DNA from: a virus
Length of the DNA stretch: 64,000 bases
Direction: 5' to 3' (one strand)
Virus record (IMG/VR): IMGVR_UViG_3300045988_110853
Location: 4,077 to 68,076 of that record
Positions within the stretch are counted from its first letter, which is position 1, and each line of letters starts with the position of its first letter. Shown here piece after piece: positions 33,195 through 38,737 of this stretch. The translations under genes and the position numbers were made by a program. The notes beneath the pieces were generated by a model. The model did no database searches, was not told the origin of the DNA, and worked only from the letters and a program-made list of their open reading frames with translations.

Positions 33195-34646
33195 TTACAT
33201 AAAATTACGTGCGAAGTCTTTTAAAGACTTAAAATTATCAACTTTTTCTTCATCAGCATCTTTAAAGCACCAGGGACATAAATACATATCAGTCCCTTTG
33301 TGATAGTGAATATCTTGCGTATAATATAAATTGTTACAACACTCACATCGTTTACAATAAGTATCCGCACAACTATCGCAAACCAATTCATTTTCATCGC
33401 CGACGGAATTTGCTTCATCAAGGATTATACGAGAACCACAACAAGAGCAATAACCATAGTTATCATCCTCATCTACTCCATAATTGAATTCACAATTTCC
33501 GCATCGCATATATTCCCCATTTTCAATCATAGTCTTACCGCACTGTAAACAAGGAACATCCCCGCCAATAGACCAATGAGGAAGATCGTTCTCTCGCGGA
33601 TAATAGTATAACTTTAAACTATAAATTGGTAAATAACAAGAAGAATAAAGCAAATCATTATAGTGAAGAGTATAATAACCCGCATCATCAACAATCTCAC
33701 TAATAGGATACAAGCGAGATAAAATAGGAATCCACGTTTCCGCTAATCCAATAGTCTCTTCACCAAAAGGAGTAATACTCATTCTATTAGAAATATTATT
33801 AATACCCCCATCTACCCATTCGCGCAACTGAAAACTCTTATCAAAGGTATTGATAATATCTCTGATCTGAATTAAAGCATTAGTTGTCATAAAAGGATAC
33901 TGACGTCCAGCCATCAGACCGCGTCGCTTATCTTCCATATATAAAAGCATACGCCATTTCTTAGAATTCCAAAGAACATCTTCGGGAAAATGCGGAAGCT
34001 TCTGATTGTCCGCTCCGCGCAAATAGCAAATAAAAGTGCTCTTATCCACCATATAAGATAAATTTCCTGCTCTATATTCACCATCAAGCGCATGGCAAGA
34101 CCGCCAATTATAAGTATTTTCACTTACACTCAAAAAATCCAAAGGGTGAACTGAAAAACATAACGTTCCTTCAATCTTATCCTCTTGGATAATGCGACTT
34201 GCGTAATTCTGAATATCTTCCAAAGAACGCGGATTTTCTTCAAAATATTTAAAAGCCTTAACTAATTTCATTCCTCTTGGAATCTTTTTATCCTTATAAA
34301 AATAAGTATCAATAACTGTATTATCAAAAAATCCCTTTTTATTTACGGAAATAAAATCAGTTAAATCTCCATTATTATAAGTATAATTAATTGTTTCAAG
34401 AAATTCCTCAAGGCGATGCTCTTTAGTTTTATCATCTAAGGAAAAAGATACTTTTTCCGGCCATTCATAAATCAAATGACCGTGAAAAAAGTTAATTAAG
34501 TCTTTTTTGGCTTCGAGGAATCTTTCGAATAGTTCTTCTGTTTTTGGATTACTGATTCCTTGGGAGTAGCTGATGACTTTGTTGAACTGTTCTCTAATGC
34601 TTTCGATGTCGAAGTCGTATGACATTTGACTAATCCTCCAATACAA
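33195..34646 (-). CDS. large protein with C-terminal multi-zinc-ribbon region; paralog of 37133-38737
   Basis: Shared motifs KGMKL.K, GxLCxSxHPLD, WxSC, GEYRxG, WNSKxWR; C-terminal CxxC clusters. Confidence 0.55.
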   Translation of the reverse strand: MYWRISQMSYDFDIESIREQFNKVISYSQGISNPKTEELFERFLEAKKDLINFFHGHLIYEWPEKVSFSLDDKTKEHRLEEFLETINYTYNNGDLTDFISVNKKGFFDNTVIDTYFYKDKKIPRGMKLVKAFKYFEENPRSLEDIQNYASRIIQEDKIEGTLCFSVHPLDFLSVSENTYNWRSCHALDGEYRAGNLSYMVDKSTFICYLRGADNQKLPHFPEDVLWNSKKWRMLLYMEDKRRGLMAGRQYPFMTTNALIQIRDIINTFDKSFQLREWVDGGINNISNRMSITPFGEETIGLAETWIPILSRLYPISEIVDDAGYYTLHYNDLLYSSCYLPIYSLKLYYYPRENDLPHWSIGGDVPCLQCGKTMIENGEYMRCGNCEFNYGVDEDDNYGYCSCCGSRIILDEANSVGDENELVCDSCADTYCKRCECCNNLYYTQDIHYHKGTDMYLCPWCFKDADEEKVDNFKSLKDFARNFM

Positions 34647-35602
34647 TCTTTACAATACTCACTGTGTGGGTTCGCAGGGTCAATCTCAAATGCCTCTTCA
34701 CACTCCGCACACCATTCAACATTACTGGGAATACAATCCGGACAATAAAAACACGTATGTCCGTCTAAGCCTTTTACTGGAAATGTTTCATATTCGCTAA
34801 ATAACTGACCGCATCCTCTACAATGAACGTAGAATCCACCACCGTCAGTTGGGAAATTTTTACACATATTATCGAACCAAACACTATGATAATCACGATA
34901 ATACTCAAAATCAGGGATATTCTTTTCTTGAAGCATGCGGATTACCTTATTAATTGTGTCAAAAAGAGCACCCGCATTTAATGTTTCAATACGATTATGT
35001 TCGTTTTTATAACCTACTGAAAGATTTACACCACAAATTTTCCATTCGGGACATAAAATACTAATATCACTAAACGTGCCAAAATCCTCTACAAATCCAA
35101 AAGACTCAATGTAGTCCATAAACTTAGGATTGTAAAGGTCATAAAACACACAATCATTTGTGCCTTGTCTATCTAATTGAATAATATATTTCAAATCAGG
35201 AAACGGACAATCAAAATACTGTAATACTAATGCTTCGGCGCCTAATCCACCAAGCTCTTCATCGGTAGTGAAAATAATAGAAGGGCGCAAAGGCGTATTT
35301 CTCAAAATATGAAGAATCGCATATACTCCCGCTCTATCATCCGCGCCAAGTCCGTCCGGAGACCAAAGCACATTTTTTCTTGTATCATAATATAAATCTT
35401 TGACCGGCTTCTCAAACACCGTATCAAGATGAGCCACTAATGCGATCGGGATATCCCCAACTGCACAAACATACTCTTTAGTATCAACCACTTGAGTATA
35501 TTTATTCTTTAATACATCAAGGACATATTTTCTTAACTCCTCTTGTGTTGAGCGAACCAGATATTCAAATAACCAAAGTTCATTAGTTTTAAAACCTCTC
35601 AC
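34496..35602 (-). CDS. M28/M42-like metallopeptidase with C-terminal Cys-rich zinc-ribbon region
   Basis: AHLDTV, GADDRAGV, TTDEELGGLGA metal-ligand motifs; overlaps next gene by about 130 nt. Confidence 0.6.
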   Translation of the reverse strand: MRGFKTNELWLFEYLVRSTQEELRKYVLDVLKNKYTQVVDTKEYVCAVGDIPIALVAHLDTVFEKPVKDLYYDTRKNVLWSPDGLGADDRAGVYAILHILRNTPLRPSIIFTTDEELGGLGAEALVLQYFDCPFPDLKYIIQLDRQGTNDCVFYDLYNPKFMDYIESFGFVEDFGTFSDISILCPEWKICGVNLSVGYKNEHNRIETLNAGALFDTINKVIRMLQEKNIPDFEYYRDYHSVWFDNMCKNFPTDGGGFYVHCRGCGQLFSEYETFPVKGLDGHTCFYCPDCIPSNVEWCAECEEAFEIDPANPHSEYCKDCIGGLVKCHTTSTSKALENSSTKSSATPKESVIQKQKNYSKDSSKPKKT

Positions 35603-35653
35603 AGTTTATTCTCCTATCTTTTATCTTATATTTATATTATAACATTATTTTTT

Positions 35654-37043: not shown

Positions 37044-37104
37044 AATTTTTACCTTAACCTTTCATAAACAACAATTTTATTTTAGGAAGTATCTCTTCCT
37101 TTAC

Positions 37105-37144
37105 TTTACATATATATTATATATTATTTTTTTTAAAAAATCAA
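37105..37144 (-). promoter_or_regulatory. class-A promoter
   Basis: TTGATT 37139-37144, TATAAT 37116-37121. Confidence 0.55.
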
Positions 37145-38737
37145 AGAAGCTCTTTGGAGTGGGTGCGTGCCTTCGCACCAAGAAATAAAACTTTTATTAT
37201 CAATGCCAAAGAGCTCTCTACCCTTCTCGGTAAGAGTTTCTCCATCAACATAATAATTATTACGCCAATAATCTCTCTCTTCTTCAATTTCACCAGTGAA
37301 GAATGTTTTTACCTTTTTATCTTCACAGCAGTCCCAGCAGATATCCTGATAGTATCCCATCGGCTTCTTTTGGAATCGAAGACGAATTAGTTTCATATCA
37401 TCATAATCTTTGCGGACTCCGCAACAAGGACAAACCTCAGTAGACTCGTCATAACAGTAAGCACAATAAGTTTTTCCATCAACATTGTAAGTGTCATTGA
37501 CATAAACAATATCGCCACACTTATCGCACTTTGTCGCACCAGAGCAACTCGGGCAAACAGTCATTTCCGCGTCATTCTCTCTATCATCAAGGAAAGAGTC
37601 ATCAAAGATTTCTCCACAACACATACATTCAGATTCGCCCGAATAATTAAGGTCGATACTATCGTCAGCACAGACCTTAGTGGAAACATAAGCATTATGA
37701 TCTGAGTAAATATCATTATACATAAAATTGGTGTCAAAACTAAAATAAATAGTTTTATCAAGCTCACCAATAAAATTAGCGCTATAATTATGAATCTGAT
37801 TCAGATACTGAGTATAAGGACCAAAACCAAGATTCTTCTCAGCGAGTTCCTTAATCCAAGAAAGACAAATGGTTTCAAGGTTTTCATTACAATAAGGATA
37901 CCCCTTAATACCAAGAATCACATTCTCGTCTACAATGAAGAGTTCGCGCCAACGCTTACTATTCCACATAACAGACTGACCGTTCTTGCGCCAAAGCTCC
38001 ATATCCTTATCAGATTTGAGATAGGTTTCAAGAATAATAGGAGAGTTCATCATTTCAACGGTTCCCTGACGATACTCGCCACCGCCATTCTGCCATCTCA
38101 TACAAGAATCCCAACCGCAATCATTATCACTCATAGTCATATAGTCAAGAGGATGAATAGAAAGACAAAGCTCACCAGAAATATTCTTCTGATTAAGGAA
38201 CTGAGAATGGGCGATACGGAACTTTTCATAAATATCGCGGTCAATATCCAAGATATCACTCATCTTGCCGAGCATCTTACTAAGCTTCATACCCTTATTA
38301 ATCATAAGAGTTTTATTGTTATAAGTGAATTTAAAAGATTCCCCATCATAAATGTTAGACATTAAAGGCTCAACATTTAAAAAGTTTATCAAGTTCCAAT
38401 ACTGATCAGGAGTAATGATTTTTTCAAGATGAAGATTCCTTAATTTAGCAGAAAAAAGCTCTTTGAATTCAAATCCATCACCATTCCGACCAAAATAGTC
38501 ATAATAATCCTCGCTCATATCTTCATAAGTGCGAGAATAACTTACCTTGCGAGAAATGATAAGATTATTTCCAAGCATCTTATAAAGACTCTGCTTATTG
38601 TAAGACCAAAAGCGAAGGATATAGTCAAGAGATGCTTCCATATCGGAACTATCTCCACCAAGTCCCGCAAAATTGCGGATATACCATTCAATCTTTTCGC
38701 AATCTTCTTTGGAAAGGAGTTCAAATAAATTAGCCAT
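37133..38737 (-). CDS. large protein with C-terminal multi-zinc-ribbon region; paralog of 33195-34646
   Basis: 534 aa; same motif set as paralog. Confidence 0.55.
   Translation of the reverse strand: MANLFELLSKEDCEKIEWYIRNFAGLGGDSSDMEASLDYILRFWSYNKQSLYKMLGNNLIISRKVSYSRTYEDMSEDYYDYFGRNGDGFEFKELFSAKLRNLHLEKIITPDQYWNLINFLNVEPLMSNIYDGESFKFTYNNKTLMINKGMKLSKMLGKMSDILDIDRDIYEKFRIAHSQFLNQKNISGELCLSIHPLDYMTMSDNDCGWDSCMRWQNGGGEYRQGTVEMMNSPIILETYLKSDKDMELWRKNGQSVMWNSKRWRELFIVDENVILGIKGYPYCNENLETICLSWIKELAEKNLGFGPYTQYLNQIHNYSANFIGELDKTIYFSFDTNFMYNDIYSDHNAYVSTKVCADDSIDLNYSGESECMCCGEIFDDSFLDDRENDAEMTVCPSCSGATKCDKCGDIVYVNDTYNVDGKTYCAYCYDESTEVCPCCGVRKDYDDMKLIRLRFQKKPMGYYQDICWDCCEDKKVKTFFTGEIEEERDYWRNNYYVDGETLTEKGRELFGIDNKSFISWCEGTHPLQRASLIF

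Follow-up and report, generated by a model that had tools for sequence, protein, structure and literature searches.

A conserved phage gene module that pairs a new family of cysteine-containing proteins with an MH-clan hydrolase

What is the function of two large, related proteins with cysteine-rich tails that a phage encodes close to a peptidase? This question is raised by positions 33195-38737 of a 64,000-nucleotide stretch of viral DNA (the window: IMG/VR record IMGVR_UViG_3300045988_110853, positions 4,077 to 68,076), which looks like part of a large phage genome. The two proteins are named A and B here and the peptidase-like protein Pep. Together with p452, a gene for a probable winged-helix protein (wHTH), gene X and p103 they make up the module p452-B-wHTH-X-Pep-A-p103 (Table 1). 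An earlier reading, made from the letters of the DNA and hereafter called the sequence-only reading, did not recognise the family and proposed a pair of DNA-modification, primase-like or anti-defence enzymes. It is well supported that the module is real, conserved and uncharacterised, and that its central partnership is that of a new Cys-containing protein family with an MH-clan hydrolase. No published account of these proteins or of the module was found in the literature searched.

The two paralogous open reading frames (ORFs) are both real and both located on the minus strand. BLASTP aligned A with B at E=4e-17 (30% identity across the central ~150 aa of the core) and in a second segment across the Cys-rich tails (E=5e-4). 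The five motif blocks quoted in the sequence-only reading were all found in A and B alike: GMKLxK (A118/B149), GxLCxSxHPLD (A153/B188), WxSC (A174/B209), GEYRxG (A182/B220) and WNSKxWR (A219/B258). Other details of that reading were corrected. It started A at the TTG at 34646; the ATG at 34625, eight bases after GGAGGA, is the most likely start. It counted 8 to 12 CxxC pairs in the tails, where seven CxxC motifs are present in A and six in B, and the tails hold roughly three Zn(Cys)4 sites each. It placed the paralogs on either side of the peptidase, which is right for A, as this adjoins Pep, and not for B, from which Pep is separated by the wHTH gene and X. It is well supported that A and B have diverged as paralogs within a large superfamily of uncharacterised phage proteins, and that each consists of three parts: an N-terminal helical domain, an alpha/beta core of ~200 aa and, at the C-terminus, an acidic array of some three LIM/FYVE-like zinc fingers.

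In a 90%-clustered database 2,755 homologs of B and 2,243 of A were found, none with a Pfam domain or a name. Many of them reside on contigs of 100-200 kb, and the same contigs appear in the lists of A and B. The profile of the most divergent subfamily matched 1,698 clusters (50% identity) at E<=1e-3 and 289 at E<=1e-10, and a homolog search that started from the most divergent paralog gave only 25 close relatives. Conservation was determined in an alignment of 146 diverse representatives of the 50%-identity clusters, in which the mean column identity is 9%. The sole invariant column is the Cys of WxSC (B Cys212, A Cys177). Conserved in at least 90% of the representatives are, in B numbering, Lys48, Ser178, Ser193, Pro196, Asp198, Ser203, Trp209, Ser211, Gly220, an Asp at the position of B Asn231, Lys261, Trp263, Arg264, Tyr280, Pro281, Asp342 and Gly367. 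The near-invariant blocks of the core are Ser, Pro-x-Asp, Trp, Lys-x-Trp-Arg, Tyr-Pro and Asn-Asp, and such a pattern of polar residues would be typical of an active site. At the His of the HPLD motif other family members have R, D, E, A or L, and they keep the Pro, the Asp and above all the WxSC Cys; as it is unconserved in the wider family, this His was rejected as a catalytic residue.

That the family could not be recognised was borne out by profile searches. The core contains no Pfam domain in A, B, 36 relatives or 110 diverse representatives, and none of these proteins matched the acetyltransferase models of Pfam or NCBIfam. Scans of the core against NCBIfam and PADLOC yielded nothing, and PDB sequence profiles, full-length as well as core-only, found only LIM matches, by way of the tail. 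Relatives of the core are placed under 'unknown function' in PHROGs (phrog_18912, phrog_29713). BFVD returned uncharacterised phage proteins only, plus LIM-like tail matches to phage 'amidoligase' and 'LIM domain' proteins. The core family is without a detectable sequence relative in the curated libraries. The fold classes of which the module is built are known ones: treble-clef zinc fingers, a winged helix, the peptidase fold of the MH clan and, possibly, a core of the GNAT type.

The AlphaFold2 models of A (pLDDT, the predicted local distance difference test, 86.6; predicted template modelling score, pTM, 0.78) and B (pLDDT 90.2, pTM 0.76) both consist of the N-terminal helical domain, the alpha/beta core and C-terminal small beta-hairpin zinc modules. 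Within the core, confidence is lowest in the loop with the invariant Cys (pLDDT <50 in A and ~80 in B); in the models this residue is predicted to sit in a flexible loop. The cores were compared with the GNAT acyltransferases RimJ (6c30), HAT1 (1bob), RimL (1s7f) and PatZ (9it0), and also with FemA (1lrz) and ATE1 (8tzv). Identity to these GNAT-fold enzymes is only 3-10%, which amounts to no sequence similarity, and the likeness was barely reproduced for A. The invariant Cys is a feature of the A/B family and not of GNAT.

The partner of the two paralogs is better placed. The sequence-only reading described an M28/M42-type peptidase with HxD, D and EE ligands and a zinc ribbon of its own; these residues are present and conserved family-wide, and five C-terminal CxxC motifs follow. 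Pep reaches 21.1 bits with Pfam Peptidase_M28 (cut-off 21.3; E=2.8e-4) and 19.5 with M20 (cut-off 24.6). It matches PepT-type NCBIfam models at E=8.7e-7, far below the cut-offs of those models, and PHROG 'peptidase' families at 1e-27 (phrog_4191, 1.2e-27) and 4e-43. The residues of the ligand set occur in the expected order: H58-L-D60, D88 (DDR88), E115-E116, D(R) at ~144 and H202 (NEH200). In 16 diverse Pep homologs, which include those of the Enterococcus phage EF1 and of the distant loci L101, L102 and L104, the motifs AHxDTV, GaDxRaG, EExG, DR and GYxxeHxxxE are invariant. By comparison with the MH clan these motifs would constitute its complete metal-ligand and catalytic set, and because this set is kept, Pep is probably an active hydrolase. 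Pep is like MH-clan peptidases (Peptidase_M28/M20 and PepT-like tripeptidases, e.g. 3rza) in having HxD, D, EE, D and H in the right order. It differs from them in two respects: the catalytic part is one domain of ~245 aa without the M20 lid/dimerisation domain, and fused to it are two acidic zinc ribbons with homologs in A and B. The end of the Pep ORF overlaps the start of A by ~130 nt in another frame and encodes a basic low-complexity tail (isoelectric point, pI, 9.9). L002, a close relative, retains this overlap, which is shorter or absent in most of the more distant relatives and looks like a clade-specific extension. A programmed frameshift joining Pep to A was considered and rejected, as the overlap is clade-limited and A is provided with a Shine-Dalgarno sequence and an ATG of its own.

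A second link between the three proteins is formed by their zinc modules. With hhalign the zinc ribbon of Pep was aligned to B's second zinc module (probability 75%, E=2.4e-5), and the hidden Markov model of Pep matches the tails of 8 of the 146 diverse core proteins. A, B and Pep thus all bear homologous zinc modules. In the window proteins the zinc-finger regions have a pI of 4.28-4.38, and over 78 relatives the median is 4.06; the pI of the whole proteins is ~4.7-5.0. The strong acidity of the modules argues for protein-protein contacts and not for direct binding of nucleic acid. Pfam LIM was weakly matched by 2 of 36 members (E=0.016). In comparison with the tandem treble-clef fingers of LIM and FYVE, the A/B tails belong to viruses of prokaryotes, have all-Cys ligands and about three zinc sites, and are strongly acidic.

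A survey of the genomic context of homologs, which had been proposed as a check, revealed a conserved co-linear module in most loci. When IMG/VR was scanned with a pattern, 150 relatives of B came up, from which 80 loci were kept; their ORFs were surveyed with phmmer. The order p452-B-wHTH-X-Pep-A-p103 was co-linear in almost all 80 loci, down to 32% B identity, with B duplicated in ~11 loci and A missing in ~5, and the same gene order was found in 16 contigs of metagenome-assembled genomes (MAGs) that are probably mis-binned phages. Overall, B-wHTH-X-Pep-A-p103 was present in ~95 loci. The search of bacterial genomes yielded only MAG contigs that resemble mis-binned phage genomes. In distant members the constant feature is the clustering of core genes around Pep (core-Pep-core in L101, core-Pep-core-core in L102 and core-Pep in L104). 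That an MH-clan di-zinc peptidase-like hydrolase is the constant partner of the family in the loci examined is well supported. Because synteny is strict although B orthologs are only 32-40% identical, the module looks more like a core function than like an accessory gene.

Among 50,697 GenBank phage records, tblastn with four family members found only seven Enterococcus phages of ~140 kb and one 4-kb fragment, and megablast of the region against phage records gave zero matches. The Enterococcus phages EF1, EF5, H1 and VRE9_1-4 carry true homologs with the same module logic (phrog_18912, phrog_29713 and the peptidase-like phrog_34186), ~25-31% identical to the window proteins and all annotated 'hypothetical'. 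The EF1 cluster consists of a 623-aa core protein with zinc fingers and, further on, wHTH, a 399-aa core protein, a 368-aa M28-like Pep with zinc ribbon and a 335-aa core protein with zinc fingers. EF1 has three paralogs versus two in the window, and X, p103 and p452 were not detected in it. The shared module may be vertically inherited within one lineage, since a 2023 paper suggests that EF1 and gut phages in which TAG is recoded to Gln could be members of one putative family (PMC10607447).

The transcription signals of the module suggest when it is expressed. Every module gene is preceded by a Shine-Dalgarno-like sequence, and promoters upstream of X and of Pep-A-p103 match the sigma-70 consensus, which suggests transcription by the host RNA polymerase, i.e. 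early or middle expression, as far as can be predicted from such matches. Window-wide, 17 perfect TTGACA-N16-18-TATAAT promoters were counted, 15 of them on the minus strand, against a chance expectation of 0.12 (examples: 13905-13933, 20260-20288, 40917-40945 and 56606-64000). In several of them the AT-rich spacer (TTGACATTTTTAAAAAAATAATATATAAT) is almost the same, which gives the impression of a repeated promoter cassette.

Taken together, the idea of an enzyme pair in the sequence-only reading is plausible and is strengthened by the invariant polar residues in the 146 members, the obligate core-peptidase neighbourhood and the shared zinc-finger module. Tentatively, and at a probability well short of even, A and B are regarded as Cys-dependent enzymes that are co-targeted with the aminopeptidase-like Pep onto a protein partner early in infection. 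A and B would use Cys-dependent covalent catalysis on a possibly GNAT-like scaffold, either to transfer acyl or peptidyl groups or, by way of a thioester, to hydrolyse amides. The shared acidic zinc-finger modules would assemble A, B and Pep into one complex, or dock all three on the same partner, a protein that would probably be basic. Jointly they might trim and modify the termini or side chains of proteins or peptides early in infection, and the wHTH protein might be a regulator or adaptor. Cys catalysis, a protein substrate, complex formation and early timing are what we infer in this proposal.

Several observations weigh against it. A lone conserved Cys could bind a metal or a cofactor instead; acidity is common among phage proteins and is no proof of a protein substrate; and a dihydrofolate reductase (DHFR) fusion and neighbouring genes in distant relatives, described below, point to nucleotide metabolism. 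The GNAT fold has the order beta1-alpha1-alpha2-beta2-4-alpha3-beta5-alpha4-beta6, and its motif A is the loop that binds the pyrophosphate of acetyl-CoA. This motif, Q/RxxGxG/A, is absent from the core alignments; the strand-helix junction, of which the equivalence to GNAT beta4-alpha3 was inferred from the order of secondary structure in the A and B models, has an invariant Tyr-Pro followed by x3-4-Asn. 'GNAT-like' is regarded as a possible lead and not as an assignment.

The first alternative is that of a module for nucleotide, folate or DNA modification. The Cys would then be a nucleophile acting on a pyrimidine or nucleotide, as in thymidylate synthase and dCMP hydroxymethylase, and Pep an amidohydrolase of a folate- or nucleotide-linked amide, in the service of the supply of deoxynucleoside triphosphates or of DNA hypermodification. 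A genuine fusion was found in P0272 (624 aa, L084 51-1925), in which a C-terminal DHFR domain follows the core and zinc fingers (Pfam 4.2e-15), beside a MazG-like PRA-PH gene and a ribonucleotide reductase (RNR) gene. Thymidylate synthase (ThyA) is encoded ~0.5 kb downstream of core-Pep-core in L101 and an anaerobic RNR ~1 kb upstream in EF1. The window itself contains a polynucleotide-kinase/deoxyribonucleotidase-like gene and an exonuclease-like gene. MH-clan enzymes include the folate-cleaving carboxypeptidase G2 and GCPII. The ThyA fold with its Cys nucleophile and folate- and dUMP-binding motifs was not found in A or B. The DNA-modification idea of the sequence-only reading thus retains weak contextual hints, namely the one DHFR fusion and the ThyA and RNR genes near the module in distant relatives, and this alternative as a whole is considered unlikely.

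An improbable explanation is that A and B are non-catalytic zinc-finger scaffolds or regulators (transcription or replication factors, primase-like ones included), in which the core is a binding domain and Pep matures or turns over proteins. The constant pairing of B with the wHTH protein would fit this, as would the resemblance of p103 to small proteins of the SSB type or with a clamp-binding motif, the likeness of the zinc-finger arrays to the zinc-binding domains of primases and transcription factors, and the conservation of the module like a core function. However, both the zinc fingers and the proteins as a whole have an acidic pI (4.0-5.0), and similarity to archaeo-eukaryotic primases (AEP), TOPRIM domains, polymerases or sigma factors does not rise above noise, which also leaves the earlier primase-like proposal without support. 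Moreover, an invariant Cys with (near-)invariant D, K, R, Y and D in members that are ~20% identical fits an active site better.

Quite improbable is a role as accessory anti-defence or host-takeover effectors that inactivate a host immune protein by cleavage or modification, an explanation compatible with the chemistry proposed above for A and B. It agrees with the early-type sigma-70 promoters, with acidic proteins that seem built for protein interaction and with the variable copy number of the paralogs. However, synteny is strict and the module is present in virtually all related genomes that were sampled, even where B is only 32% identical, which is atypical of fast-turnover anti-defence genes, and PADLOC gave zero matches for A, B, Pep, wHTH, p103, p452 and X. 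That A and B are GNAT-fold transferases dependent on aminoacyl-tRNA (of the FemX, L/F-transferase or ATE1 type), adding residues to N-termini exposed by the aminopeptidase in N-terminal remodelling or an N-degron system, is highly improbable, since the likeness is no greater than to ordinary acetyltransferases, the conserved motifs of FemX, L/F-transferase and ATE1 were not found in A or B, acidic proteins fit tRNA binding poorly and recognition of N-degrons by ClpS-type proteins is not known to be established in Bacillota, the likely hosts.

If A and B are enzymes, as is tentatively preferred, they would represent a new family of catalysts, and perhaps a new way in which phages modify proteins or nucleotides; should they be scaffolds, they would define a new zinc-finger-based assembly system in phages. 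The wider proposal would be that A and B are the founding members of a superfamily of Cys-dependent enzymes that is new (~1,700 50%-identity clusters, nearly all from uncultured phages). With the aminopeptidase and its zinc-finger tag they would make up an obligate multi-enzyme machine, expressed early, by which proteins are covalently remodelled, e.g. by trimming termini and transferring acyl or aminoacyl groups. It would be a phage-specific system of post-translational modification without a described counterpart, kept as a lineage core function of large Bacillota phages; this is distinctly doubtful. The module is among the most conserved 'dark' blocks of a large lineage of gut phages of 100-400 kb, some of which are recoded from TAG to Gln. 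It offers an experimentally tractable entry, with a single invariant Cys as candidate active site, a recognisable hydrolase partner and a shared docking module, because the hosts on which the Enterococcus phages EF1, H1 and VRE9 grow can be cultured.

Table 1. Module genes, their parts and surrounding features, with positions in the window
Feature	Position	Strand	Remarks
p452	38867-40225	minus	first module gene; upstream of B in most related loci
Terminator-like hairpin	38809-38846	minus	strong; 15-bp stem and T run; between p452 and B
B	37133-38737	minus	ORF; paralog, 534 aa
B, N-terminal helical domain	38303-38737	minus	
B, alpha/beta core	37688-38302	minus	
B, acidic LIM/FYVE-like zinc-finger array	37298-37687	minus	
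B, Asp198 codon	38144-38146	minus	
B, invariant Cys212 codon	38102-38104	minus	
wHTH	36627-37043	minus	138 aa; weak Pfam HTH_20 match, E=0.003
Terminator-like hairpin	36584-36613	minus	after wHTH gene; ends B-wHTH unit
Sigma-70 promoter	36479-36507	minus	perfect TTGACA-17-TATAAT, extended -10 TG; upstream of X
X	35654-36454	minus	266 codons; TTG start after AGGAG
X, in-frame TAG codons	36350-36352 and 36086-36088	minus	
Second sigma-70 promoter	35636-35664	minus	perfect consensus; upstream of Pep-A-p103
Pep	34496-35602	minus	single-domain MH-clan (M20/M28/M42-like) di-zinc peptidase or amidohydrolase
Pep, catalytic part	34868-35602	minus	
Pep, two acidic zinc ribbons	34628-34867	minus	
Pep/A overlap	34496-34625		
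A	33195-34625	minus	paralog, 476 aa; phrog_18912 match
A, N-terminal helical domain	34281-34625	minus	
A, core	33606-34280	minus	
A, invariant Cys177 codon	34095-34097	minus	
A, acidic zinc-finger array	33246-33605	minus	
p103	32877-33182	minus	101 aa, ATG 33182; last module gene
Terminator-like hairpin	32844-32873	minus	directly after p103
235-aa protein	31564-32271	minus	C-terminal half of Tyr/Asn/Ser/Gly/Arg repeats (YDGSYRxSNNA-like)
~470-aa protein, one of pair	30035-31456	minus	within low-GC island
~470-aa protein, other of pair	28629-30035	minus	weak radical-SAM/SPASM maturase matches
YcaO protein	23162-24979	minus	Pfam 1.2e-27; within low-GC island
tRNA array	10855-22192	minus	20 tRNA genes
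tRNA, anticodon CTA	12207-12296	minus	suppressor type, reads UAG
tRNA, anticodon TCA	10855-10934	minus	suppressor type, reads UGA

The remaining module genes are less conspicuous. The product of p452 has a conserved beta-rich domain in its centre, and the C-terminal tail behind this (...FGNMLPLFMMSE...MMMYFLMK...) is unusually rich in Met, a composition that relatives share; the protein gave zero Pfam or PHROG matches. The wHTH protein probably has a winged-helix domain at its C-terminus, and its gene comes after B in nearly all related loci that continue beyond B. The protein of X ends in an invariant C-x3-C-x4-6-C-x2-C cluster. It gave nothing in Pfam or PHROG and nothing significant with PDB profiles, where the lone hint was a de novo TIM barrel (E=0.028), and it possibly has a beta/alpha-repeat (TIM-like) fold. 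In p103 a conserved N-domain of ~55 aa with an invariant TCPK is joined by a variable acidic linker to a conserved C-terminal tip (...EITxEE...LMxRLGL-COOH). We take this layout to recall SSB-type proteins and the tip to recall C-terminal sliding-clamp-binding motifs such as QLxLxL; p103 gave nothing in Pfam or PHROG and nothing significant in the PDB.

Nearly all genes of the window, of which the GC content varies from 22 to 45%, are located on the minus strand. The two TAG codons within X are apparently read as Gln; one of them aligns to a Gln of a close relative. Several long ORFs of the window, e.g. 25713-27809, are open only if TAG is read through, and the module genes all stop at TAA or TGA. 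Together with the tRNA array and its CTA suppressor, the in-frame TAGs of X, the TAG-interrupted ORFs and these stop codons suggest that TAG is recoded to Gln in part of the genome.

Immediately downstream of the module, at 22270-32271 on the minus strand, lies an island of very low GC content (22-29%), which looks like a biosynthetic cluster of the type that produces ribosomally synthesised and post-translationally modified peptides (RiPPs). The repeat protein and the paired ~470-aa genes also come after p103 in several related phages. Further along the minus strand, at 6918-8366 and 9000-10178, one protein with an N-terminal Mtd_N domain and a neighbour with Listeria-Bacteroides repeat domains are encoded. 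Mtd_N is the fold of the major tropism determinant, a target of diversity-generating retroelements, and both proteins are possible receptor-binding proteins.

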